This document shows, piece after piece, positions 218-51,909 of a stretch of 53,980 nt of DNA. The stretch comes from a bacterium (lineage in GTDB: Bacteria; UBA10199; 2-02-FULL-44-16; DYJF01), in assembly GCA_041739675.1 (NCBI GenBank), contig JBGSNL010000057.1:1-53980 (forward strand), given 5' to 3'. The position numbers were made by a program, and so were the translations under genes. The notes under the pieces are model-generated. The model was not told the DNA's origin. It made no database searches and saw only the letters and a list, made by a program, of their open reading frames with translations. Each line of letters starts with the position of its first letter. Position 1 is the stretch's first letter.

Positions 218-2584
218 ATGGGTTATAATGAATCAGACACACGTGCAAAGCTTATAGATCCAGCGATCCATGCACGTGGTTGGACAGAAGACCTGATCAG
301 AAGAGAAGAAACATCGGGTGCTGTTGAAATAATCGACGGCAAACCCCGGAAGAGATCTAAAGGAAGGGTTGATTACACTCTCCGTATCAAGGTCAATCCA
401 GACGCCCAGCCAATAGCCATCGCTCTCATTGAAGCCAAAGCCGCGGACCTCACACCGGAACATGGTCTTGAGCAGGTGAAGCTCTATTCGGATTGTCACA
501 GACTCAACGTTCCATTCGTTTTCTCCACAAACGGGCACCTCTTCATAGAGTTCGACCATTTCAATGGTCGGACAAAGCTTGCTCAGCCAATGGAGAAGTT
601 TCCAACCCCTGCCGAATTACGCACCCGATATGAGCAAGGGATGGGGTTTAAATTAGATGATCCCGTCGCAAAACCCCTTCTGATGAAATATCAGGGGGGT
701 GAAGCAACCCGCCGCTATTATCAGGACGCCGCGATCAGAGCGACGCTTGAGAAGATCGCTCAGTGCGAAAAGAAAGGTAAGCCAAAGCGGGCTCTTCTTG
801 CTTTGGCCACAGGATCGGGCAAGACATTCATAGCAGTCAACCTTCTTAAAAAGATTGCTGATGCAGGGCAACTGAAACGGGCGCTTTTCTTGTGTGATCG
901 AGATGAACTCCGTAACCAGGGCCTTGGCGCCTTTCAAAACATTTTTGGCGCAGATGCAGCGGAAGTCTATCAAAAATCAGATGGCACGAACAATGCGAAG
1001 AATGCGCGAATCCACATCGCCACATATCAAACGCTGGACGTGGACACAGCGGATGGAACCGCCAACTTTCTCACAACGCACTATCCCGAAAATTACTTTA
1101 GCCATATTATCATCGATGAGTGTCATCGCTCTGCTTGGGGAAAATGGTCTCAAGTGCTCAAACGCAACCCGAATGCCGTTCAGATAGGTCTCACCGCAAC
1201 GCCAAGACAACTGGAGTTTACGGAAAAAACGAAGGAATCAATGGCCGATGCTCAACTTACGGCTGATAACATCAAACATTTCGGCGAGCCTGTTTATGTA
1301 TATGATATGGGCCAAGCCATCGAAGATGGCTATCTCGCCGCCTGCGAAATTCAGAAAGGCCGTGTAGATATAGATGATACTGGCCTTTCAATCGACGAAG
1401 TCCTTGCAAAGAACCCCAAGAATGCAGCTACAGGCCAGCCTGTAACGAGAGAAGAGCTGCAGGAGATATACTACAAGAAGGATTACGAGAATGTCATCAT
1501 GCTGCCTGATCGCGTGATGGCGATGTGTCAGGATTTTTTCAATTATCTTATCGAGACAGGCGATCCACTTCAAAAGACAATCATCTTCTGCGTGCGCGAT
1601 TATCATGCGGATCAAGTGGCAATTACCATGAACAACCTCTATGCTTCTTGGTGTGAGAAAAATGGTCTCAAACCCGTTTCGCCGTATGCTTTTAAATGTA
1701 CGGCTGCCTCTGGAGGAAGCCAATATCTAGCCGATCTCCGCGGTGCCTCGCGCTCACATTTCATTGCTACAACCGTCGATCTTCTAAGCACCGGTGTGGA
1801 TGTCCCTGTGGTTCGCAACATCGTTTTTTTCAAATATGTGCGCTCGCCTATTGCCTTCCACCAAATGGTCGGGCGAGGAACACGTCTGCATGCACCGAGT
1901 GGAAAGCTCATGTTTCATGTCTATGATTACACGAACGCCACACGCCTCTTCGGCAAAGAATTCATTACTAAAGCTCAAAAACCCCAAGGCCGAGGAGGTC
2001 CAACACCACCCGCGCCACCTATAATTACTGTTGAAGGGTTCGATGTTCATGTAACAGACGCCGGACGTTTCATTGTTACTAAGGTTAACGGAGAAACAAA
2101 ACCAGTTACAGTTGAGGAATACAAAGAACATCTTGCAGAACGCCTTGTGAAAGAGGTTAAGACACTTGAGCAGTTTCGATCAAAATGGGTGAATCCTTCA
2201 GAACGTGCTACGTTATTGGCCCAGCTGCCAGATGGGGGTCGATGCGTAGACCTAATCAGAGAGTTAGATGAGATGAAGGATTACGATGCCTACGATATCT
2301 TAGCTGAACTTGCTTATGGTATGGTCCCACGTACGAGAAGTGAGCGCGCCGAGTCCTTTAACTACAAGCACAGAAAATGGCTAGATAGCCTTACGCCCGA
2401 AGCTGCTGCTACGATTATCGCGCTTGCATCACAGTTTTCACGTGGAGGTACAGAGGGGCTTGAAAATCCTCAAATATTCATGACCCCCGAAGTTTTAAGG
2501 GCAGGCGGATTGGAAGCCCTAAAAACAATAGGAAAGCCAGCCGATATACTCCGTGAGACCAAAGAGAGGATGTTCGCGGCATGA
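218..2584 (+). CDS. hsdR: Type I restriction enzyme R subunit (nuclease + SF2 helicase, EcoEI-R-like C-terminus)
   Basis: N-terminal NESDTR and VDY...IEAK PD-(D/E)xK motif; Walker A ATGSGKT, DECH, GLTATP, TGVD, QMVGRGTR helicase motifs. Confidence 0.93.
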   Translation: MGYNESDTRAKLIDPAIHARGWTEDLIRREETSGAVEIIDGKPRKRSKGRVDYTLRIKVNPDAQPIAIALIEAKAADLTPEHGLEQVKLYSDCHRLNVPFVFSTNGHLFIEFDHFNGRTKLAQPMEKFPTPAELRTRYEQGMGFKLDDPVAKPLLMKYQGGEATRRYYQDAAIRATLEKIAQCEKKGKPKRALLALATGSGKTFIAVNLLKKIADAGQLKRALFLCDRDELRNQGLGAFQNIFGADAAEVYQKSDGTNNAKNARIHIATYQTLDVDTADGTANFLTTHYPENYFSHIIIDECHRSAWGKWSQVLKRNPNAVQIGLTATPRQLEFTEKTKESMADAQLTADNIKHFGEPVYVYDMGQAIEDGYLAACEIQKGRVDIDDTGLSIDEVLAKNPKNAATGQPVTREELQEIYYKKDYENVIMLPDRVMAMCQDFFNYLIETGDPLQKTIIFCVRDYHADQVAITMNNLYASWCEKNGLKPVSPYAFKCTAASGGSQYLADLRGASRSHFIATTVDLLSTGVDVPVVRNIVFFKYVRSPIAFHQMVGRGTRLHAPSGKLMFHVYDYTNATRLFGKEFITKAQKPQGRGGPTPPAPPIITVEGFDVHVTDAGRFIVTKVNGETKPVTVEEYKEHLAERLVKEVKTLEQFRSKWVNPSERATLLAQLPDGGRCVDLIRELDEMKDYDAYDILAELAYGMVPRTRSERAESFNYKHRKWLDSLTPEAAATIIALASQFSRGGTEGLENPQIFMTPEVLRAGGLEALKTIGKPADILRETKERMFAA

Positions 2585-3738
2585 GTGGGTGGTCAATATT
2601 ATTTTCAACTAAACGCCAGCTACCTACTGCCTGGAAATGGACAATGTTGGGGGGTGTATGTGACTTTCTGGATAGTCGAAGGATTCCAGTTAACAACGGG
2701 GAAAGAGAACGACGTATTGCTGGAAAAGATAAATCAGATTTATATCCATATTATGGTGCCAATGGCCAGGTCGGTTGGATTGACAATTACATATTCGACG
2801 AACCATTAATTTTACTGGCTGAAGATGGCGGTTTCTTTGGGTCAACAACGAAACCTATTGCTTATATTGTGAGTGGACGATGTTGGGTTAACAATCATGC
2901 TCATGTATTGAAACCTCATCCCGATGTCTGCTTTGAATATATCTTGCACGCTCTGAGAATTCGACCTGATGTTTTGGATATGGTTTCTGGTTCGACGAGA
3001 GCCAAACTCAATCAGCAAATTGCTTCACGTATTTCCATTCCACTCCCCCCCCTCCCCGAACAAAAGCGCATCGCGGCGATTTTGAATGAGCAAATGTCTC
3101 AAGTCGACAAAGCCCGCGCCGCCGCAGAAGCGCAACTTGAAGCCGCAAAGGCCCTCCCCGACGTTTATTTGCGGCAAGTATTCCCCAAACCCGACCAACC
3201 TTTGCCAGAGGGGTGGCAGTGGGTTCCATTTAAAGAAGCAACAGGAAGAGTTAACACTCAGACTCGAAAACTCAAAACATCAGAATATAAATGTTCAGGT
3301 CAGTATCCGATTGTTGATCAAGGTCAAAGAGAGATTGTAGGCTACACTGATGATAGAAGCTGCATCATCTATGAGCCTCTTCCTCTTGTGGTGTTCGGAG
3401 ATCATACTAAAGTTGCGAAGCACGTCGATTACCCTTTTGCAATCGGAGCGGATGGCGTGGTATTGCTTTCATCAAGAAATGGTGTTGATTCAAGGTTCTT
3501 ATTTTATTGGCTAAGACAGATTTACATTCGGCATTTGGGATATGCAAGACACTATAGTGTCTTGAAAAGCAAAACTATACCTCTCCCCCCTCTGCCCGAA
3601 CAAAAGCGGATTGCGGCGAGTTTGAATGAGAAGATGGCGGAAGTGGACAAGCTTCGTGTGGCGCTGGAAAAGCAACTTGCCGAGATCAGTGCCATGCCAG
3701 CGACCATATTGCGAAAAGCATTCAGTGGAGGTCTATAA
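2581..3738 (+). CDS. hsdS: Type I RM specificity subunit
   Basis: Two TRDs each followed by the conserved IPLPPLPEQKRIAA repeat; LPxxW motifs; C-terminal ILRKAFSG; ATGA overlap with hsdR. Confidence 0.93.
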   Translation: MSGWSILFSTKRQLPTAWKWTMLGGVCDFLDSRRIPVNNGERERRIAGKDKSDLYPYYGANGQVGWIDNYIFDEPLILLAEDGGFFGSTTKPIAYIVSGRCWVNNHAHVLKPHPDVCFEYILHALRIRPDVLDMVSGSTRAKLNQQIASRISIPLPPLPEQKRIAAILNEQMSQVDKARAAAEAQLEAAKALPDVYLRQVFPKPDQPLPEGWQWVPFKEATGRVNTQTRKLKTSEYKCSGQYPIVDQGQREIVGYTDDRSCIIYEPLPLVVFGDHTKVAKHVDYPFAIGADGVVLLSSRNGVDSRFLFYWLRQIYIRHLGYARHYSVLKSKTIPLPPLPEQKRIAASLNEKMAEVDKLRVALEKQLAEISAMPATILRKAFSGGL

Positions 3739-4686
3739 ATGAAGAAAGAGAATGTGGTGTCGCGGATAGAACTAGAGGATTTGAGAAAAGTCTTTTCAAA
3801 CGAAGCTACAAGCTTCACACCTTGGCTTGAATCGCACATTGATGCCTTAGCGGAACGTTTGGGAATGGATCTTTCTGTTGAACAAAGAGAAAAAGATGTC
3901 GGCGATTTCAGCGTGGATTTGTTGTGTGAAGACAGCGACGGCAGAAAAGTTATTATTGAGAATCAGCTTGAAAGAAGCGACCATGATCACCTTGGCAAGC
4001 TTCTCACCTACTTGGTCAACCTCGATGCAGCGACTGCAATTTGGATAACACCCGACCCTCGCCCTGAACATATGAAGGTTATTGATTGGCTTAATGAGTC
4101 AACCGCAGCAGATATCGCCTTTTATCTGGTCAAGGTTGAAGCTATACGAATTGGCGAATCTCCAATAGCGCCGCTTTTCACTGTATTTGCAAAACCAGAT
4201 GTCCAGACTAAAGAAATTGGCGATAAAAAGAAAGAGTGGGCTGAGCGTCACTATCAAAGGATGGAATTTTGGAAGGGTTTGCTCGAAAAAAGTAACCAGA
4301 AGACCAAGATATTCTCGAACATATCGCCAGGCAGGTATCACTGGATTGGGGCTGGCGCGGGGAAATCGGGACTGTCCTTCAACTTTGTTATTTGGAAGGA
4401 TATGGGCGCTTCTGAGCTCTACATTGATTACGATCGTGATACAGGAGAAATAAACAAACAGATATTTGACGCCTTGTATGCACAAAAAGACGAGATTGAG
4501 AAAGAAACTGGCAAGTTGGAATGGGACCGCCTCGACGCAAAACGCGCATCAAGAATTCGTAAAATATTTAAGGATGGTGGACTAACAGAACCCGACAAAT
4601 GGCCAGAATTGCAGGATAAAATGATTGGTACTATGATTGCATTACACAAGACTATTAAGCCACGTTTAGCAAAGATCGAGGTCTAG
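3739..4686 (+). CDS. DUF4268-type protein with N-terminal PD-(D/E)xK (NucS-like) nuclease domain
   Basis: EATSFTPWL, VGDFSVDLLC...VIIENQLERSDHDHLGKLLTY motif; C-terminal FW..LL and LEWDRL..KRASRI pattern. Confidence 0.75.
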   Translation: MKKENVVSRIELEDLRKVFSNEATSFTPWLESHIDALAERLGMDLSVEQREKDVGDFSVDLLCEDSDGRKVIIENQLERSDHDHLGKLLTYLVNLDAATAIWITPDPRPEHMKVIDWLNESTAADIAFYLVKVEAIRIGESPIAPLFTVFAKPDVQTKEIGDKKKEWAERHYQRMEFWKGLLEKSNQKTKIFSNISPGRYHWIGAGAGKSGLSFNFVIWKDMGASELYIDYDRDTGEINKQIFDALYAQKDEIEKETGKLEWDRLDAKRASRIRKIFKDGGLTEPDKWPELQDKMIGTMIALHKTIKPRLAKIEV

Positions 4687-4689
4687 CAT

Positions 4690-6213
4690 ATGCCGAGGCA
4701 ATCAAGAAAAAATAACGGGAAAACACTTATTACTCAGCAGTCAGTGAATTCGGTAATAAAGTCCATCTGCGACATCATGCGCAGGTCGAACTGCGCTGGT
4801 GCGCTGCAATATGTCCCCGAGCTTACATGGATACTTTTCCTTAGAATACTTGATGAACGTGAGATGTTGGAGGCTGAAAATGCAGAAGCTGTTGATGCTC
4901 ACTTCAAGTTTTCACTGGAGCACCCTTACCGCTGGCAGGATTGGGCAGCCCCAGATGGTAAGAAACGAAAAGACCTGTCTGATAAAGGAATGGGTTACTT
5001 CTTTGGCTTCGTAAACGAGGACTTACTGCCACATCTTAAGGAGTTGAGGGACAAACCAAACGCTACGCCACGTCAAAAAGTGATCAGCGAGATACTTGCA
5101 GGTGTGGATCGGGTGCGCATCGACACGGAACGCAATTTCTTGGACGTATTGGATAAGGTTAATGAGATAAGCGCTGACGGGATTGATCCAACCCATATCT
5201 TCTTATTGTCTCAGGTTTACGAAGGCCTTCTTCTAAAGATGGGTGAGAAAGGAAATGACGGAGGTCAGTTTTTTACGCCTCGTGAAGTGATACGAGCCAT
5301 GGTCAGAGTAATTGATCCGAAAGTAGGCGAAACGATCTATGACCCTGGTTGCGGAACTGGCGGTTTCTTAGCTCAAAGCTACGAATACATAGTTTCAAAG
5401 CTAGGTGATAAGGTAACCCCAAACCAGCTGGAGACGCTCAAACAGAGAACATTTTTTGGGAGGGAGAAGGAAAACCTCATCTATCCCATATCGCTGGCGA
5501 ATATGGTTTTGCACGGAATAGATAAGCCAAATATCTGGCATGGAAATACGCTTACGGGTGGGGAAACCTATGGCGGCCTATTTGAGGGCGCACCTGCTCT
5601 TTTTGACGTAATACTGATGAACCCACCGTTTGGCGGCAAAGAAGGCAAGGACGCACAGACCCGTTTTCCATATAAGACAGGTGCAACGCAGGTTCTGTTT
5701 CTTCAGCATGTGATCGAAAGCCTTGAACCCAAGGGAGGGCGCTGCGGAATCGTCCTCGACGAGGGAGTTCTGTTCCGCACAAATGAGACCGCATTCGTTC
5801 AGACAAAGCGACAATTACTGGATGATTGCGACCTCTGGTGTCTCGTTAGTCTTCCCGCTGGGGTGTTTACGGCGGCTGGGGCAGGAGTGAAGACAAACCT
5901 ATTGTTCTTCACGAAGGGGAAACCTACGGAGAAGATTTGGTATTATGATCTGTCGCATTTGAAAGTTAGAAAAAAATTGCCGCTAACGCTTGTCCACTTT
6001 GAAGAATTCTTCCGTTTGCTTCCTGACCGCGCTGACAGCGATCACAGCTGGACAGTCACCCGCGAGGAAATCGAAAAAAGGGGTTACGACCTCAAGGCAG
6101 TGAATCCCAACGCAAAGCAAGATGAAGATGCGCGGACACCAGAGGAACTGCTAGACCTCATTGAAGGGAAGGGGCGGGAGATAGCGGAGATAATAAAGCA
6201 GCTACGGGGCTGA
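4690..6213 (+). CDS. hsdM: Type I RM N6-adenine methyltransferase
   Basis: GQFFTPR, YDPGCGTGGFL (SAM binding), ILMNPPFGG (catalytic NPPF). Confidence 0.95.
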   Translation: MPRQSRKNNGKTLITQQSVNSVIKSICDIMRRSNCAGALQYVPELTWILFLRILDEREMLEAENAEAVDAHFKFSLEHPYRWQDWAAPDGKKRKDLSDKGMGYFFGFVNEDLLPHLKELRDKPNATPRQKVISEILAGVDRVRIDTERNFLDVLDKVNEISADGIDPTHIFLLSQVYEGLLLKMGEKGNDGGQFFTPREVIRAMVRVIDPKVGETIYDPGCGTGGFLAQSYEYIVSKLGDKVTPNQLETLKQRTFFGREKENLIYPISLANMVLHGIDKPNIWHGNTLTGGETYGGLFEGAPALFDVILMNPPFGGKEGKDAQTRFPYKTGATQVLFLQHVIESLEPKGGRCGIVLDEGVLFRTNETAFVQTKRQLLDDCDLWCLVSLPAGVFTAAGAGVKTNLLFFTKGKPTEKIWYYDLSHLKVRKKLPLTLVHFEEFFRLLPDRADSDHSWTVTREEIEKRGYDLKAVNPNAKQDEDARTPEELLDLIEGKGREIAEIIKQLRG

Positions 6214-6228
6214 GGAAATCATATTCTC

Positions 6229-6972
6229 ATGATGAATTATGACAAAATAATCTCAACCGATTTTGGGGCAGGTGATGAAATACCTAAACCAACCGATTGG
6301 CAAGAAATCAAGAAGGAATCTTTTGAGTTTTCAAGGCAACAAGAAGCACTTTATCAGGCTCTTGTAGAAAAGACTCCCGAATTAGCGAGAATGTATAAGG
6401 GTGCATTAATTGTTCTTATCAACAGAGATAATCCAGAGCATCTTTGTCACTCTGCGCATAGCATTCGGGAATTAATGGAGAAAGCACCAATACATTTCAA
6501 CTTACCCAGAATTCCCAAGGAACCACTTCCTGTCAAGGTGAACGCGCTCGAAGAAAAATGGCAGCCTCTGGAGGAACACGTTAACGATAATGGTTTATGC
6601 AACATTCCAGAGAATAATAAAACAGTCCTAGAGCGTTTTTTATCTGCATGTAAAACCTTCTTTACATGGCGAAAAACATTTCAGCCACGTAGATTAAATA
6701 AGGCCGCTGAAATGCTAAGAGGTTTCGACCCCCATGAAATTGCTTTGCCGGAACACTTGGAAAAACGAAGAATCAAACAGTGGGATAATATTAACGATTA
6801 CTTCATATACGTAGCACATCACAATAAACTCACTGATTATGATGAATTCATCAGTTGGTTAAATAAATTCGAAAACTTTTTTCTCGATCGCCTATGCCCA
6901 AGAGCATTTGAAGACCATCGCAATATAGATTCTATTATTGAGGAGGGAAATGATCAAGTCAGAGACAATTGA
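6229..6972 (+). CDS. Hypothetical protein, possibly HEPN-like nuclease
   Basis: 247-aa helical ORF 15 nt after hsdM; AHSIRELMEK and YFIYVAHH segments resemble HEPN-like folds (inference only). Confidence 0.5.
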   Translation: MMNYDKIISTDFGAGDEIPKPTDWQEIKKESFEFSRQQEALYQALVEKTPELARMYKGALIVLINRDNPEHLCHSAHSIRELMEKAPIHFNLPRIPKEPLPVKVNALEEKWQPLEEHVNDNGLCNIPENNKTVLERFLSACKTFFTWRKTFQPRRLNKAAEMLRGFDPHEIALPEHLEKRRIKQWDNINDYFIYVAHHNKLTDYDEFISWLNKFENFFLDRLCPRAFEDHRNIDSIIEEGNDQVRDN

Positions 6973-9835
6973 AAAGGCCATACAAGCCATTACGAAAAGG
7001 CGAGCTGATTATGAGTATTTTTATAATAAGCTCGATTCACCTGACTGGTTAAAACCACTTTGGAAGGAGGGCTTTTTCTGCAAACCAGAACCGATAATCG
7101 CCGAGGGTAAATATATAAGTTTTCCGCTTTGGCCAGAATCACAATATCTGGCTCGAATGGCTGCAAAAGACCCGGATACAGTATGTGAAATAATATTAAA
7201 GATTCCTAACACAGATAACGCGCGTGTTCATGATGACTTGGCAAGTGCAGCCTTAAATATGCCGCCCCAAGTATCTGCCCGTCTTGTCGATAAAGCGGCG
7301 GAATGGATTGAATCACCTTATCATCTTCTTTTACCCGATCATCTTGGTAAGCTGATTGAACATTTAGCAAAAGGTAATGAAGTCGATGCAGCTTTAGCAC
7401 TAGCGCGCTCTCTCTTGGATGTTGCGCCGCCACAAATACCAGAAAAGGAGGATGATAAAGAGGATTTGCATAAATACGAAGATGCAAAGCCGCTTTTTGA
7501 GGAATGGGCGTATGAGCATATTCTTAAGAAGAACATTCCAGCTCTTGTTAGTGCAGCAAAAATAAAGGTTTTTGAACTTCTTTGTGATCTCCTTGAAAAA
7601 AGCGTGATTGGCGGTATTTCCAAGCAGTCTAGGGAGGACAAAGAAGATTTCTCATATATTTGGAGACCTGCCATTGAGAACCATGAGCAGAACGTATCAC
7701 ATGGCTTAAAAAGTCTGTTAGTTACTGCTTTGAGAAGCGCCGCAGATTTACTCATGAAAGATGATTTAGTATCCATCAATGATATAGTGGCTTTCCTTGA
7801 GGCAAGGCCTTATTCAATTTTTAAACGACTCACACTATATATCTTACGACAGCACCCTGCAAAATCTGCCTACCTTGTGACCAAGTATGCTCTGGATTGC
7901 GCTGTATTTGACGATTACAGGTTCTTCCATGAATATTTTTTGCTGATACGTGTTGTTTTTGAATCTCTTGCCCCTAGCGATCAAAATACAATACTTGGCT
8001 GGATAAACAATGGGCCAAGTGACGTTGAAGATCATAAGCGCTCGTATAAGGAAATGTACGGGAAGGAATTGTCAGATAGCGAGGTGAAGGATTATATAAA
8101 TCACTGGATTATTAGAAGACTAGCTGTGATCAAGGAGGTATTGCCCGCTGAGACAAAAGCAAAATACGACGCTCTGGTTTCAAAGTACGGTGAGCCAAAG
8201 CATTCAGAGTTTCGAAATTATCACGAAAGCTGGGTTGGGCCAACTAGCCCAATTGGAAATAAAGAGCTTAGCGAGATGCCAGTCGATGACATTATTAACT
8301 ATCTATCAAATTGGAAACCCTCGACAGAAATGTTTGCACCGACTCCAGAGGGGCTCGGTCGCTTATTGACAGACATCGTTTCCGCAGAACCAGAAAGATT
8401 TGCAAAAGCCGCAAATAACTTTAGAGGCCTTGATCCAACGTATGTGAGGGCTTTACTTGGTGGCTTTTCCAATGCAGCAAGAAATAAGAAGGCATTTGAT
8501 TGGGGGCACGTTCTCGAATTGTGTCAGGGGATTGTATCGCAATCTATTGAAATATCAGGAAGAGATGTTGGCGAAATAGATGCCGATCCAAGCTGGGAAT
8601 GGACAAGGCAGAGAATAGCGCATCTGCTCGATGATGGTTTTCATGAATGCGAAGGGTGCATCCCTTTCCAGTACAGATCATTGGCTTGGAGTATTCTTGT
8701 CAAATTGACAAATGATCCAACCCCTACGCCTGAAGACGAAGAACGTTATGGCGGCTCAAACATGAGACCCGCCGAGCTATCCATAAATTCAACCCGTGGT
8801 GAAGCCTTACATGCTGTTATTCAGCATGCACTATGGATTCGTAGGCACAATGATAAGAAATCAAATGCTAAAGAGCTTGCAAGTCGGGGATTTGATGAAA
8901 TGCCTGAGGTTGAAGACGTTCTTAATAATCATCTCGATATATCTAAGGAATCTTCGTTAGCTGTTCGATCAGTGTATGGACAATGGTTCCCTTGGCTTGT
9001 ATTGCTTGATAAGAAATGGGCGCAGGAAAGCGCAGCAAAGATATTCCCCACAGATGATAGCCATATTGCACATCGAAATGCCGCATGGCATACATATCTA
9101 GCCTTCTGCGCACCATATACAGAAGTATATGATCTTCTAAAAGAACAATATCTGTTTGCCGCAAATAATTTAGTAAATGTGAGTGAAACAGAACGAGCCG
9201 TTCATGAAACTAATAAGCGGTTAGCAGAGCATTTGATCACATATTACTGGCGCGGCAAGCTAGAACTCGACGACTCTGAAAGTTCCTTGAGCGTCTTTTA
9301 TGAGAAGGCTTCTGATTCTTTGCGCGCCCACGTCATGGCATACATTGGGCGACCTCTTGAAAAAACAAAAGAAGCAATTGAAGACGAAGTTTTAGATCGA
9401 CTAAGATCATTATGGGAAAAGAGACTTGACATTGCATCCAAGTCAGCCAATCTCTCGTTGTTTAAATCAGAAATTGCGTCATTTGGTTGGTGGTATGTGA
9501 GCGGTAAGTTTGATTATGACTGGTCACTTGATCAGTTATCGAAAGCGCTCAAAATATCTAAATATATAGACCCAGCCTATAAGGTCATCAAAAAGCTTGC
9601 CGATAATGCAAATATAAACTCATTACAGGTCATTGATTGCATCGATATCATCATCAAGGAACAGGATGACCAGCGGATATATTACGGCTGGCAGGATGAT
9701 ACAAAGATGCTGTTATCGAAACTAATGAATAACTCGGATAGTGCTGTAGTAACGAAAGCTAAAAATCTCGCAAACTATCTCATTGCGAAAGGCTACGGCG
9801 AAATTCGTGAATTATTTTCGAATGGCACTAAATAA
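6950..9835 (+). CDS. Large alpha-helical hypothetical protein (candidate defence sensor/scaffold)
   Basis: SD GAGGAGGG before ATG 6950; overlaps the upstream ORF; ~960 aa, Trp-rich helical (WPESQYLARMA, SINSTRGEAL); no P-loop or other catalytic motif seen. Confidence 0.6.
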   Translation: MIKSETIEKAIQAITKRRADYEYFYNKLDSPDWLKPLWKEGFFCKPEPIIAEGKYISFPLWPESQYLARMAAKDPDTVCEIILKIPNTDNARVHDDLASAALNMPPQVSARLVDKAAEWIESPYHLLLPDHLGKLIEHLAKGNEVDAALALARSLLDVAPPQIPEKEDDKEDLHKYEDAKPLFEEWAYEHILKKNIPALVSAAKIKVFELLCDLLEKSVIGGISKQSREDKEDFSYIWRPAIENHEQNVSHGLKSLLVTALRSAADLLMKDDLVSINDIVAFLEARPYSIFKRLTLYILRQHPAKSAYLVTKYALDCAVFDDYRFFHEYFLLIRVVFESLAPSDQNTILGWINNGPSDVEDHKRSYKEMYGKELSDSEVKDYINHWIIRRLAVIKEVLPAETKAKYDALVSKYGEPKHSEFRNYHESWVGPTSPIGNKELSEMPVDDIINYLSNWKPSTEMFAPTPEGLGRLLTDIVSAEPERFAKAANNFRGLDPTYVRALLGGFSNAARNKKAFDWGHVLELCQGIVSQSIEISGRDVGEIDADPSWEWTRQRIAHLLDDGFHECEGCIPFQYRSLAWSILVKLTNDPTPTPEDEERYGGSNMRPAELSINSTRGEALHAVIQHALWIRRHNDKKSNAKELASRGFDEMPEVEDVLNNHLDISKESSLAVRSVYGQWFPWLVLLDKKWAQESAAKIFPTDDSHIAHRNAAWHTYLAFCAPYTEVYDLLKEQYLFAANNLVNVSETERAVHETNKRLAEHLITYYWRGKLELDDSESSLSVFYEKASDSLRAHVMAYIGRPLEKTKEAIEDEVLDRLRSLWEKRLDIASKSANLSLFKSEIASFGWWYVSGKFDYDWSLDQLSKALKISKYIDPAYKVIKKLADNANINSLQVIDCIDIIIKEQDDQRIYYGWQDDTKMLLSKLMNNSDSAVVTKAKNLANYLIAKGYGEIRELFSNGTK

Positions 9836-10322: not shown

Positions 10323-10430
10323 TATGTAAAAATGGTAATGAACACCCACATTCATAATCAGCATCACCTCCGCAAAATAACCCTTGATAATATACCCCTC
10401 CGGCATACAATCGTATGCTGGAGGAATACG

Positions 10431-10982
10431 ATGCTATTCACAGATAACCAACTGTCCATTTTAAGCGTTCTTATCAACGAGCCGGAGGGAGAGCTTCATT
10501 TCAGGGATCTGGCGAGACGTCTTCAGAAAGAGCCGGGAGTGATCCAAAAATCGCTCAACAACCTCGAAGTGGGCGGGTTTGTCAAAAGTCGCAGAAGAGG
10601 AAATCAGCGGCTCATAAGTTTCAACATTGATCACCCGTTGGCCGAAGAAGTGAAAAATATCGTGGAAAAAAGCGCCGGAGTGAGAGCGGCCCTGAAAAAA
10701 ATAATGGATGAGTTGGGCGAGATCAAAACGGCTCTCATATTTGGTTCCTATGCAAGGGGGAATTATACAAAGGCATCGGACATGGATCTTCTAATTGTAG
10801 GTAATCCCAATTGCGAAACCGAGCTGACAAACAAAATAGGAGATATAGAGAAGAAGATCGGACGGGAAATCAATTTCAAATTATACAGTCCCGACGAATT
10901 CAGACGCCGGATGAAGAACAAAGATCCCTTTCTTGAAGAGATCCTGGGCGATAAATGCATTCTTCTAAAAGGAAAATTATGA
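10431..10982 (+). CDS. Winged-HTH + minimal nucleotidyltransferase (MNT) antitoxin
   Basis: SD GGAGG; N-terminal HTH; IFGSYARG...SDMDLLIVG Pol-beta NTase motif. Confidence 0.88.
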   Translation: MLFTDNQLSILSVLINEPEGELHFRDLARRLQKEPGVIQKSLNNLEVGGFVKSRRRGNQRLISFNIDHPLAEEVKNIVEKSAGVRAALKKIMDELGEIKTALIFGSYARGNYTKASDMDLLIVGNPNCETELTNKIGDIEKKIGREINFKLYSPDEFRRRMKNKDPFLEEILGDKCILLKGKL

Positions 10983-11443
10983 AAGGCATATTTGACGCTC
11001 ATATGAATGGTGGATTTTTAAAGAAGCAACATCCAAATGAACGTCAAATATCGTATCAACTTCATCGTGCCGATCTTGATCTCAAAACTGCTCAAAAAAT
11101 AATCAACGCGGACCCGGAATGGGCGATAACTGTTGCATATCATGCGATGCTGCGTTCAGGCCGTGCTTTATTGTTTGCTCATGGTTATTTGCCCGCGGAC
11201 GGCGCCCAGCATAAGACGGTAGTCGAATTAACGGGCAAGATATTCGGAAGCAGCTATAAGGATCTCATAACGCAATTTGAGCGCTTGCGCAGGAAGAGAA
11301 ATATGTTTTTCTATGAATCATTCGAATCGGCATCTGCTACAGAGGCGCGAAACGCACTGAAGACAGCTGCAACAATTTTGGCAGAAGTTAGGAAAGCTGT
11401 TGAAATAATCTCGAAACAGCAGCATCTTGACTTCCAGAAATAG
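10979..11443 (+). CDS. HEPN domain protein (MNT-HEPN toxin partner)
   Basis: AYHAMLRSGRALL and RRKRNMFFYE HEPN-type motifs; ATGA overlap with the MNT gene. Confidence 0.85.
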   Translation: MKGIFDAHMNGGFLKKQHPNERQISYQLHRADLDLKTAQKIINADPEWAITVAYHAMLRSGRALLFAHGYLPADGAQHKTVVELTGKIFGSSYKDLITQFERLRRKRNMFFYESFESASATEARNALKTAATILAEVRKAVEIISKQQHLDFQK

Positions 11444-11523: not shown

Positions 11524-11545
11524 GCGGGAACGATAATCGCTTATA

Positions 11546-11972
11546 TGGAGGGCATGCATATGCAATATTCAATCGCATTAGACCTTCAGCAGAGAATGTG
11601 TGAGATTGTGCGCAGGCTCGATTTTACACATATAGATTGCAATCGAGTTGTTTGTCTCAGAAGCATCGGGAGCAAAACCAAAAGAGTCATTGCCAGATGC
11701 CATGCTTTGCCCAAGATTATGCAGTTAGCAATGGAGGCGAAGGCTCATTATGCGATCGAGTTTCTGGAACGCTTTGAGAAACTCACAACGGCCGATCAGG
11801 ATATGACGATCATCCATGAATTGATGCATATTCCAAAAACCTTCGGCGGCGGTTTCAGGCATCACGATTTTGTTTGTCGTAAAAATGTGGAGAAGTTGTA
11901 CAAAATGTATTTGCAGTCCCAAGGATGAAGGGGGCGGGCGCTTTTATCATTGATCGTTTTGCATAAGTAAAA
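11546..11972 (+). repeat. ~430-bp direct repeat, copy 1 (copy 2 at 14361-14787)
   Basis: Near-identical DNA covering the SD, the whole metallopeptidase gene and ~45 nt of downstream sequence ending GCATAAGTAAAA. Confidence 0.92.
11560..11928 (+). CDS. Putative zinc metallopeptidase (COG4900 / phage-metallopeptidase-like), copy 1
   Basis: IIHELMHIP HExxH motif, GGFRHH, RSIGSK..VIAR pattern; SD GGAGGG. Confidence 0.8.
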   Translation: MQYSIALDLQQRMCEIVRRLDFTHIDCNRVVCLRSIGSKTKRVIARCHALPKIMQLAMEAKAHYAIEFLERFEKLTTADQDMTIIHELMHIPKTFGGGFRHHDFVCRKNVEKLYKMYLQSQG

Positions 11973-12016: not shown

Positions 12017-12583
12017 CTATTTAGCCTTAGTCAACATCCCATTAACAATGGCTCGATATTCGGTCTGACGATGCAAGGGGTCAGTTGAGAACGCCAGATA
12101 AGTAGGGGCTGGCGTTAGCAGATCGTCATCTTTTCCATGAGCATAATAATTGTATGAAGACCATATACTGTCCTTTGGAGTTTTGTCCCTTCCGGCACGC
12201 ACGCCATTCAGGTCGACATAGGCCATAACTGCAAGCAGATGAGTATCACCTTCGATCGGCAGCGACTTGATCCTTTCCATAACCACCTGACCACGCCTGC
12301 GCATCCTACGATTTGTCTGCCGTGCAAATAAGTTGTTAACGACTCTGAAGAAATTCGAGAAAGATTCTATTGATTCGGTTTTTCCTATCAAGTGAATGTG
12401 ATTTTCCATGAAGTGGTAGCCGTAAAAGACCATTTCATATTTATCGCGGTATTTAAGCAGCAGGTCATAGTAGAGCCGCTTGATGCGATCGTCTCGAAGC
12501 AGCCAACTCTTGTTGTGACATCGCCATGCTACGTGAAATAAGCAGCCATCATATAGTATCTGGTTGCGTGGTCGGCCGGGCAT
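12017..12583 (-). CDS. REP-associated tyrosine transposase (Y1_Tnp, HUH superfamily)
   Basis: MPGRPR start, FHVAWRCHN, MENHIHL (HUH), YVDLNGVRAG (catalytic Tyr), WSSY. Confidence 0.88.
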   Translation of the reverse strand: MPGRPRNQILYDGCLFHVAWRCHNKSWLLRDDRIKRLYYDLLLKYRDKYEMVFYGYHFMENHIHLIGKTESIESFSNFFRVVNNLFARQTNRRMRRRGQVVMERIKSLPIEGDTHLLAVMAYVDLNGVRAGRDKTPKDSIWSSYNYYAHGKDDDLLTPAPTYLAFSTDPLHRQTEYRAIVNGMLTKAK

Positions 12584-49611: not shown

Positions 49612-50046
49612 ATGGCAGTGGAAAGGACGTTGGGAGTGGTTAAACCGGACGCGCTGGAAAAGGGCGTTATCGGCGAAATTCTGAAGCGGGCCGAGGATGC
49701 AAACCTCAAGATGGTCGCCTGCAAGATGATGAAATTAGACAAGAAAAGGGCCGAGGGTTTCTACGCCGTGCACAAGGGCAAGCCCTTTTTTGATAGCTTG
49801 GTGACATTCATGACATCAGGCCCGGTGCTCATCTTCACTTTGGAAGGTGACAATGCAATCAAGACGTGGCGCAAGGTGATGGGGGCCACAAATCCCGAAG
49901 AGGCGGCGGACGGCACGATCAGAAAAGATTTCGGATCGTCAATCGAGAAGAACGCGGTTCACGGTTCCGACGCGCCTGACACGGCAAAGTTTGAAGTCTC
50001 CTATTTCTTTGAGACCCACGATATCGTAAGTTACGAATGGCTTTAA
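49612..50046 (+). CDS. ndk: Nucleoside diphosphate kinase
   Basis: [37 protein letters not shown]. Confidence 0.97.
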
Positions 50047-50462
50047 AATCTTATGAGGTGATCGATCACACCGCAGATATAGGCATCCGCGTCGCGGGCG
50101 AAAACAGGGAAGAACTCTTCATCCGCGCCGCGGAGGCCATGTTCGATGTGATGGTCGCTTCCAAACCCAATCTCACCGCATCAATCAATGTCCCCATAGA
50201 TGTAGAGGCCCAAAAGCCCGACGAGCTCCTTGTCAAATGGCTGCAGGAACTTTTGTACGTCTTCGACACGCGCCATCTGGTCCTTTCCCATTTTTACATC
50301 GATAAACTCACGGATACGTCTCTTTCAGGAAGCGCCAAGGGGATGAAGTTCGACAAGCTCCGCCACGAAATGCTCCGCCAGATCAAGGCGGTCACCTACC
50401 ACAAGCTCTCCCTTGAGAAGGCCGGCGACTGCTGGCACGCGCAGATAATCTTCGATATTTGA
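50037..50462 (+). CDS. Archease
   Basis: [12 protein letters not shown] and IKAVTYH...IIFDI signature; directly upstream of rtcB. Confidence 0.93.
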
Positions 50463-50472
50463 AAGGCGATTT

Positions 50473-51909
50473 ATGGACATCGAGCGCATCAACGATTTTT
50501 GCTGGCGCATACCGAAGCACGGCGCCATGCGCGTCGACGGGATCATCTATGCATCAAAACGCATGCTAGATGACATTTTGAAGGATGAATCCTGCCAGCA
50601 GGTCATGAACGTCGCGTGCCTTCCCGGAATAGTGAGGGCGTCTTTGGCGATGCCGGACATCCACTGGGGTTACGGTTTTCCCATCGGGGGTGTCGCTGCC
50701 TTCGACATGGAAGAGGGCATCATCTCGCCGGGAGGGGTGGGCTACGATATCAACTGCGGAGTGCGTCTTCTGCGCACAGATCTTCCCGCAAAAGATATTC
50801 TCGAAAAAAAGCGGGAGATAGTGAATCACCTCTTCCGCGAAATCCCCACCGGAGTCGGCGCGCATCATCGTGATTTCACATTGAGCCACGATGATTTGAG
50901 AGACGTGCTGAAAGAAGGCGCAAAGTGGGCGGTGAGGCGGGGCTTCGGAGATGAAAACGATCTGGCCCACATTGAAGCGGGCGGATGCATTCACGGTGCC
51001 GATCCGCAAGCGGTGAGCGAGCGCGCAAAAGAGCGTGGAAAAGATCAGCTTGGAACTTTGGGGAGCGGCAACCATTTTGTCGAGATTCAGGAGGTGGAAG
51101 AGATCTACGACGAGGTGGCCGCAAGTGTGATGGGACTTTTCAAGGGGCAGATGACGATAACCGTTCACACCGGTTCGCGCGGGCTTGGCCACCAGATATG
51201 CGACGACCACATTGAAATAATGCTCGCGGCGTCGCGAAAATACAAAATAGAACTTCCCGATAAACAACTTTGCTGCGCGCCTATAAATTCGCCGGAAGGA
51301 AAACGTTATTTTGCGGCGATGGCTGCGGGCGCCAACTTCGCGTTTGCAAACAGGCAGATGATAACGCACTGGGTCCGCGAAACGCTTGAAAAGGTTCTTC
51401 ACATGGGGCCGGCCGATCTGGGAATCGCGCCCGTTTATGACGTCTGCCACAACATCGCAAAATTTGAAGAGCACATCGTCGGCAATTCTTCGCGGAAAGT
51501 CTGCGTCCACAGAAAAGGCGCCACGCGCGCATATCCCGCAAAGCATCCCGAAGTTCCGGCGGTTTATCGGGAAATCGGCCAGCCGGTTTTGATCCCCGGC
51601 GACATGGGCCGCTATTCCTTCGTTCTTGTCGGAACTCAAAAGGCGATGGAAGAAACGTTCGGCTCCACGTGCCACGGCGCGGGGCGCCTCATGAGCAGGC
51701 ACGCGGCGAAGAAGTTGTGCCGCGGCCGCGACATCGAAGCGGAACTGGCAGAAAAGGGAATCATCGTGCGCGGGGCTTCGCGCGAAACCGTAGTCGAAGA
51801 GGTGCCGGAGGCCTACAAAGACGTCGCGGATGTCGTCGACGCCGTCGCCGGCGCAGGCATCTCCAAAAAAGTTGCGAAATTGAAACCGCTGGGTGTGATA
51901 AAAGGTTAA
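50473..51909 (+). CDS. rtcB: RNA-splicing/repair ligase RtcB
   Basis: MPDIHWGYGFPIGG, GYDINCG, LGSGNHF, HTGSRG, HRKGATRA, CHGAGR, EAYKDV. Confidence 0.95.
   Translation: MDIERINDFCWRIPKHGAMRVDGIIYASKRMLDDILKDESCQQVMNVACLPGIVRASLAMPDIHWGYGFPIGGVAAFDMEEGIISPGGVGYDINCGVRLLRTDLPAKDILEKKREIVNHLFREIPTGVGAHHRDFTLSHDDLRDVLKEGAKWAVRRGFGDENDLAHIEAGGCIHGADPQAVSERAKERGKDQLGTLGSGNHFVEIQEVEEIYDEVAASVMGLFKGQMTITVHTGSRGLGHQICDDHIEIMLAASRKYKIELPDKQLCCAPINSPEGKRYFAAMAAGANFAFANRQMITHWVRETLEKVLHMGPADLGIAPVYDVCHNIAKFEEHIVGNSSRKVCVHRKGATRAYPAKHPEVPAVYREIGQPVLIPGDMGRYSFVLVGTQKAMEETFGSTCHGAGRLMSRHAAKKLCRGRDIEAELAEKGIIVRGASRETVVEEVPEAYKDVADVVDAVAGAGISKKVAKLKPLGVIKG

Follow-up and report, generated by a model that had tools for sequence, protein, structure and literature searches.

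What is encoded directly behind the hsdM gene on contig JBGSNL010000057.1 (assembly GCA_041739675.1), a stretch of 53,980 nucleotides referred to below as the window? Two overlapping genes follow the type I restriction-modification (RM) operon on the forward strand, one for a small protein of 247 amino acids (aa) and one for a large protein of 961 aa, and the question is to which family this pair belongs and what it does. By homology the 961-aa protein belongs to the helical sensors of Dsr1 type, and relatives of the small protein are regularly paired with or fused to such sensors. We consider it probable that the sensor and its upstream 247-aa partner, the latter as the likely effector, constitute an anti-phage system with a predicted nuclease. 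The features of the pair are as follows.

6229-6972, + strand: small partner gene, 247 aa from an ATG start (open reading frame (ORF) call)
6950-9835, + strand: sensor gene, 961 aa counted from the ATG at 6950, 965 aa counted from the TTG at 6938
6940-6947, + strand: Shine-Dalgarno-like sequence GAGGAGGG for translation of the sensor, in the 3'-terminal part of the small gene (read from the sequence)

The TGA stop codon of hsdM occupies 6211-6213 and is followed, after a gap of 15 nt, by the ATG of the small gene at 6229. The stop codon of the small gene (TGA, 6970-6972) lies inside the sensor gene, with a 23-nt overlap in a different frame. The profile of relatives begins at the ATG at 6950, not at the TTG at 6938. 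The first-pass annotation had reported a 247-aa ORF 15 nt past hsdM which overlaps by 23 nt a 961-aa ORF with its own Shine-Dalgarno sequence, and every detail checked is correct, as is the AT-richness of both genes (GC 0.39-0.45 over 6-10 kb versus 0.52-0.58 beyond 16 kb). Both are real genes: among the candidates scored, 203 sensor homologues reach E<=1e-3 (best non-self identity 48%), and an exhaustive HMMER search with the small family counted 818 representative clusters with E<=1e-3, of which 468 have E<=1e-10, the representatives being taken at 50% identity. The position of GAGGAGGG suggests translational coupling of the two genes. A scan for promoters and terminators around the pair gave numbers close to those of shuffled sequences (15 promoter-like sites versus 11.2 expected and 5 terminator-like sites versus 3.9).

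The large protein

Residues 3-957 of the 961-aa protein match positions 305-1222 of the 1227 positions of the PADLOC Dsr1 profile PDLC04166 (E 9e-67). Since this match skips only the N-terminal 300 or so profile positions, which are the SIR2 end of Dsr, we identify the 961-aa protein as a helical sensor of Dsr1 type that lacks the SIR2 domain; the abstract of Garb et al. describes Dsr proteins as bearing that domain at the N-terminus. No SIR2 Pfam domain was found in either protein of the pair, nor in any of the 120 listed sensor homologues. The NCBIfam Dsr1 model NF041818 gives a partial match (51.4 bits, cut-off 1400), and a Pfam scan of the protein found no family.

The protein had been described beforehand as all-helical and free of NTPase motifs, and both properties are seen. 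The AF2 model, calculated with 27 relatives, is an all-helical solenoid of about 58 helices (mean pLDDT 86.8), and neither a Walker A motif nor an NTPase Pfam family was detected in the 961 residues. Foldseek of this model returns alpha-solenoids with importin-beta and CAND1 at the top of the list, and the best query TM-score, 0.42, is to Avs4 bound to phage portal. Sequence searches of the PDB with either protein, with the alignment of 69 small-family sequences (A1) or with the sensor alignment (A2) gave nothing meaningful.

The likeness to helical sensor regions of large defence proteins, noted in the first-pass annotation, is borne out by the PADLOC Dsr1 match. Its other statement, that the pair fits no named system, has to be given up. 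PADLOC, where the lack of any match was to be taken as support for novelty, places the large protein in Dsr1 and leaves the small one unmatched, and a 2026 paper (PMC13581612, the Nature version, dated 29 July 2026, of the preprint PMC12803255) describes Dsr1/Avs7-type sensors with swapped effectors, HEPN-like and split forms among them.

Pairing and fusion

Loci were searched with sensor alignment A2 and later with a 12-sequence alignment, A3. The scan of genomes, with one genome per species, gave 103 confirmed places in bacteria and archaea, of which the best 80 were kept. The upstream side of the sensor in these 80 genome loci is composed as follows.

61 of 80: small-family gene directly upstream of the sensor on the same strand, 57 within -100 to +300 nt and 4 with longer overlaps (crude ORF calls)
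4 of 80: small family fused to the sensor
7 of 80: sensor with a shorter N-terminal domain fused to it
4 of 80: SIR2_2 gene of about 300 aa in the upstream slot (Pfam E 1e-12 to 7e-15)
3 of 80: N-terminal extension of the sensor by about 660 aa
1 of 80: too little upstream DNA

The three loci of the fifth row (L031, L032, L039) are from Actinomycetota metagenome-assembled genomes, in which the sensor frame runs about 660 aa further upstream. The extension in L031 includes a DUF255/thioredoxin domain (E 5e-68), and the three may be real fusions or over-called ORFs in high-GC DNA.

From the other side, metagenomes were scanned with the small family and the best 80 of 195 confirmed loci kept; these carry the closest relatives of the window protein, and the count holds at the level of this subfamily. 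The sensor is directly downstream in 73 and fused in 3, four loci are too short and no other neighbour occurs, which makes the sensor downstream or fused in 76 of 76 informative loci. Seen from both sides, pairing or fusion is near-universal. A complex prediction for the small protein with sensor residues 1-480 scored 0.61, as did one unrelated control.

The search for fused homologues proposed in the first-pass annotation was rewarding. Among the 149 best relatives of the small protein, 133 stand alone, with lengths of about 180-300 aa, nine have an extra N-terminal domain and seven are fused to the sensor. Four of these seven (P0145, P0197, P0211 and P0266, 1159-1184 aa) are full-length natural fusions, whose junction coincides exactly with the gene junction in the window. 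In addition, 40 of the 120 listed sensor homologues carry an N-terminal extension of more than 100 aa; the N-terminal 185 or so residues of these homologues are a shorter form of the small-protein domain. Aligned by hhalign, A1 and 30 such extensions (150-260 aa) match at 84.6% (E 6.8e-6) over 164 columns, in which H-x-x-R-E and the later His are superposed. Loci L044 (95% to one group, 98.9% to the other) and L065 (98.7% and 95.5%) bridge the two groups, and in Streptomyces loci L069, L075 and L077 have the short fused form (99.8%). This link is made by profiles only, pairwise BLASTP of the small protein with the N-termini of longer sensors being not significant (E 0.18-0.31).

The existence of fusions raises the possibility of one fused gene split by a sequencing or assembly frameshift, all the more as the source is a metagenome-assembled genome in 88 contigs (94.6% complete). 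Against this, 61 of the 80 genome loci and 73 of the 76 informative metagenome loci show two genes with short overlaps, and the sensor gene starts with an ATG where the family profile begins, preceded by a Shine-Dalgarno sequence of its own. Because the two-gene layout is the commonest arrangement among relatives, we dismiss the artefact, the chance of which is practically nil, and retain the coupled pair that had been proposed at first.

Exchange with SIR2

In loci L009, L020, L066 and L079 a SIR2_2 gene replaces the small family upstream of the sensor. In a FastTree phylogeny of 72 full-length sensors, which has SH-like supports only and several long branches flagged, the window falls in a clade of seven rows (local support 99) with four other small-partner loci and the SIR2 loci L009 and L020. 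To explain the SIR2 labels on this tree, two changes are the minimum. SIR2 and the small protein are exchanged beside closely related sensors, and the slot which they occupy is equivalent.

Because SIR2, a proven NADase effector, alternates in the same slot, we read the small protein as an effector; it stands in the effector position and likely acts in SIR2's place. The split design of effector and sensor suggested by the first-pass annotation is recovered in this layout, with the large protein as the sensor half and the small protein in the effector slot. The source genome has a single SIR2_2 match, on another contig (C69:15261-15692, locus L085; 30.5 bits, in an open frame of 390 aa), which is unlinked to the pair and may belong to another defence system.

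The small protein

The small protein has no match in PADLOC or NCBIfam, and no Pfam or NCBIfam family scores above its own cut-off. In the AF2 model (pLDDT 89.3) a disordered N-terminus of about 30 residues is followed by eight helices. The pattern 'AHSIRE...VAHH', which had drawn attention to the protein, is present (AHSIRE at residues 76-81, VAHH at residues 195-198) and conserved in the 69 aligned relatives: G58, R80 and P224 never vary, and H77, E81, H197 and H198 are kept in 90% or more. The domain can be described as follows.

Residues ~32-245 of the 247-aa protein: pP_pnuc_1-like helical domain with conserved H77, R80, E81, H197 and H198

PF18165 pP_pnuc_1 is annotated in Pfam as 'predicted pPIWI-associating nuclease'. 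Matches to it, weak ones, are found in 62 of the 69 small-family members (best E 4.6e-6). Three bona fide pP_pnuc_1 proteins from the phylum of the window (72-160 bits to PF18165) were aligned by hhalign with A1 at 91.9% (E 7e-7), over only 47 columns which include A-H-S-x-R-E-L. The later A-H is also present in these three proteins, which sit in other genomic contexts. In the ESM Atlas a cluster with pP_pnuc_1 appears at rank 5 with a score of 0.89, which we treat as a lead only. Because H-S-x-R-E and the later A-H recur in pP_pnuc_1 proteins of other contexts, the conserved set points to catalysis rather than to contact with the sensor. The sequence signal runs consistently to pP_pnuc_1 instead of HEPN.

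General Pfam scans found no Argonaute or PIWI gene among the window ORFs that were scanned, no search with PIWI models having been made. A literature search on pP_pnuc_1 and PF18165 found no paper, and the passages found of the 2013 pPIWI paper do not describe the domain.

Genomic context and distribution

The neighbouring genes on the left and right of the pair are the following.

218-2584, + strand: hsdR, type I RM operon (Pfam/PADLOC)
2581-3738, + strand: hsdS, type I RM operon (Pfam/PADLOC)
3739-4686, + strand: DUF4268 gene between hsdS and hsdM, PADLOC candidate PDC-S11 (E 1.5e-119), with a faint NucS-like match
4690-6213, + strand: hsdM, type I RM operon (Pfam/PADLOC)
10332-10982, + strand: wHTH-nucleotidyltransferase (MNT) gene, with the HEPN gene PADLOC candidate PDC-M05A/B
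10955-11443, + strand: HEPN gene, overlapping the MNT gene, PDC-M05A/B, downstream in the low-GC island
11545-11928, + strand: phage-type metallopeptidase gene (PF18894)
12017-12583, - strand: IS200-like Y1 transposase gene

The MNT and HEPN genes are a classical toxin-antitoxin-like module adjoining the pair. GC is about 0.41-0.47 over 2-14 kb and 0.49 in the first 2 kb, and climbs to 0.52-0.58 near 15 kb. The low-GC island reaches the left end of the contig, and its right border is the only one in the window. The remainder of the window carries bacterial housekeeping genes, among them gyrA, obg and rplU. In this housekeeping part there is also a pair of genes for archease and the RNA ligase RtcB (50037-51909, + strand); RtcB mends RNA ends of the type left by metal-independent RNases.

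The sensor is present in four of 93 genomes of the window's phylum, and a genome of the same genus (83% complete) is without it. Of 401 genomes sampled from the phylum of locus L063, two have the small family. Forty-two loci have full flanks, and the neighbours of the pair in the first 18 of them (147 genes) were compared with PADLOC at E<=1e-8. In L011 (3176-5572) and L026 (1195-5169) the pair is closely preceded by TniQ-family genes, which suggests that there it is carried as cargo of Tn7-like transposons. Homologues of CapP are near the pair in L010 (1219-2085) and L017 (12955-13686) and of CapH in L013 (3774-4322); these islands may be under DNA-damage-responsive control.

The start of the small gene 15 nt after hsdM on the same strand would also be expected of an accessory of the type I RM operon, for example one modulating restriction or methylation, in place of an independent system, and in Thermosulfurimonas dismutans (L002) the pair again lies directly after a type I RM operon. 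Homologues of the window Hsd proteins are nevertheless near the pair in one of 80 loci (phmmer, E<=1e-5), type I RM occurs in L002 alone among the 18 PADLOC-scanned loci, and the pair is found in many other contexts, including beside TniQ genes. We hold an RM accessory to be extremely unlikely.

It is very unlikely, too, that the two proteins are a helical scaffold for some housekeeping task that has nothing to do with phage defence. The solenoid fold is generic, as the importin-beta and CAND1 matches illustrate, and the defence role of the subfamily is a prediction. Against a housekeeping role stand the specific Dsr1 match over the full length of the sensor, the swapping of SIR2 into the partner slot, the patchy distribution over the phylum and the genus, and the low-GC island shared with other defence genes.

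Alternative roles of the small protein

The reading of the pair as an anti-phage system with a predicted nuclease has to be weighed against a number of observations that speak against it, which are collected in this section. With PF18165 the window protein (P0001) scores 16.5 bits, below the cut-off of 26.3, and the nuclease role of the small family and of pP_pnuc_1 is a prediction, the Pfam name included. Foldseek of the small-protein model, the check which the first-pass annotation had suggested, returned nothing from the PDB at E<=1e-3, and the VIA wide fold search gave generic helical bundles (Z<=7.6), the best of them a protein of unknown function.

The first-pass annotation had compared the small protein with HEPN-like RNases. 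The residues cited are indeed conserved; the canonical HEPN motif Rx4-6H is not, as judged from the 69 relatives. Their conserved Arg is R80, with no conserved His 5-7 residues later, and R..H strings at residues 66, 164 and 225 of P0001 are in columns without conservation. In Pfam scans of the 69 members, 42 families are matched by any member at E<=0.1; HEPN families are absent from the 25 that are listed, and since the list is sorted by member count, the remaining 17 would have at most one member each. The fold search does not discriminate: its top 50 rows include ten HEPN domains at Z 5.4-6.9, a range in which hemerythrin, cytochrome c' and designed bundles score as well, with the HEPN domain of RnlA at Z 6.9 (125 residues aligned, rmsd 4.4). 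A HEPN-like nature of the small protein is possible.

An extra N-terminal domain precedes the small domain in nine of the 149 relatives and in L004, L010, L011 and L017. It is DUF4062 in these four loci and in P0200, several of them Acidobacteriota, DUF4365 in P0252, Schlafen AlbA_2 in P0235 and a weak Mrr match in P0162. DUF4062 is reported to be a TIR-like NADase used in defence (10.64898/2026.05.01.722283; 10.64898/2026.09.04.749371). The DUF4062 forms, at about 5800-7014 in locus coordinates, are again two genes, one for an NADase-helical domain protein and one for a Dsr1-type sensor, and may be related to the published Vulcan system (DUF4062 plus HEAT repeats).

In such proteins the small domain sits between an effector-type domain and the sensor, an arrangement which also fits a non-catalytic adaptor or regulator docked on the N-terminus of the sensor and tethering the real effector in some relatives. 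In the stand-alone form, the complex of such an adaptor with the sensor would sequester a phage protein or recruit a host factor. The lack of a specific enzyme fold match agrees with this, and in short Argonaute systems the same set of effectors is joined to a non-catalytic adaptor. On the other side, 133 of the 149 relatives are stand-alone without any extra domain, SIR2, a proven effector, alternates in the same slot, and the His/Arg/Glu/His set persists in pP_pnuc_1 proteins outside the sensor context. We regard the adaptor as unlikely, and as the strongest competitor to an effector role of the small protein.

As to defence itself, a phage-defence role of this subfamily is putative. Defence-type PADLOC matches, which speak for such a role, are near the pair in ten of the 18 scanned loci (RM, Shedu, CapP/CapH, DISARM-like, HNH effector and PDC candidates), TniQ alone is in two and none is in six, figures which have no background control. 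The Streptomyces protein from NBC_00271 in PMC13581612 may belong to the same family as the NBC_00212 loci found here, and the available part of the supplementary files has no entry 'HEPN', 'Thermosulfurimonas', 'split' or 'NBC_00271'.

Proposed mechanism

For the preferred reading, the small protein as effector of a Dsr1-type sensor, the following series of steps can be envisaged. Both proteins would be made by coupled translation, from the type I RM transcript or from one that starts at their own promoter, and would form a complex. On the model of E. coli Dsr1 and Avs7, the solenoid would bind, in an infected cell, a phage structural protein that is conserved; a trigger of the capsid type is proposed because the homologous EcDsr1 and Avs7 sensors respond to phage major capsid protein (PMC13581612). 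Binding of the trigger would release or assemble the small domain, which would act as a predicted metal-independent nuclease, RNase-like and possibly of a divergent HEPN-like fold. This action would halt phage replication, probably by abortive infection. Defence, trigger and nuclease activity are what we infer for the pair.

A wider and more tentative proposal, for which we claim rather less than an even chance, is that the small protein is the founding member of a so far unrecognised and widespread superfamily of immune effectors, helical and marked by the set H-x-x-R-E ... H-H, which would comprise the stand-alone form, the short fused form and pP_pnuc_1. Its members, in bacteria and archaea, would be non-canonical metal-independent nucleases of a new catalytic mechanism, interchangeable with SIR2 in capsid-sensing receptors of the Dsr1/Avs7 type and possibly in Argonaute systems.

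The locus is of interest for the combination of the same sensor as in Dsr1/Avs7 with a partner whose activity is at present a prediction. This partner is common, the 818 representative clusters being from bacteria and archaea, and has no PADLOC model. The swap of SIR2 and small protein beside near-identical sensor types is a clean natural experiment on the role of the small domain. If the small protein is an enzyme, the modular immune toolkit would gain a new effector class and Pfam pP_pnuc_1 a function; if it is an adaptor, the pair would show sensors recruiting effectors in trans.

Comparison with known systems

With pP_pnuc_1 the small protein has in common the N-terminal helical segment G-A-L...N-P-D...A-H-S-x-R-E-L and the later A-H, and differs in scoring below the family cut-off and in aligning over 47 columns only. 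With the HEPN RNases (RnlA/LsoA and MNT-HEPN toxins) it shares an all-helical bundle and conserved Arg, Glu and His, and differs from them in having no conserved Rx4-6H, no HEPN family among the Pfam families listed and Z scores no higher than those of unrelated four-helix bundles.

Like Dsr1, the pair has a C-terminal helical sensor, homologous over its whole length, no NTPase, a partner at the N-terminal side of the sensor and a defence-type context. Dsr1 is a single polypeptide with SIR2, whereas the pair is two genes with a 23-nt overlap and no SIR2, and its effector slot holds a helical domain with predicted activity, for which NAD+ depletion is not expected. Closer still are the split Dsr1 loci L009, L020, L066 and L079, in which a separate partner gene likewise precedes the sensor gene directly and the sensors are close kin, those of L009 and L020 being in the seven-row clade of the window. 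The difference is the partner, SIR2_2 (E 1e-12 to 7e-15) in these loci and a small helical protein here.

Avs7 and Dsr1 have a common homologous sensor according to PMC12803255 and PMC13581612, and by this statement the pair would be kin to Avs7, which has a STAND NTPase where the window sensor has none. In PMC13581612, phage major capsid protein is the trigger of the EcDsr1 and SeAvs7 sensors; these two are the only proteins assayed, and the HEPN-like form is modelled. One Streptomyces sensor protein is labelled there 'HEPN-like RNase-containing' and split forms of swapped-effector sensors are mentioned, and the preprint describes sensor proteins without STAND NTPase which carry NADase, nuclease or kinase effectors. 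The Avs7-type proteins with swapped effectors resemble the pair in combining one sensor family with many effectors, some of them split, and the Streptomyces loci L069, L075 and L077 may connect the two by the short fused form of the small domain. The pair is related to Dsr1, is split into two genes and has no SIR2, and the principle of swapped effectors on this sensor is already in print.

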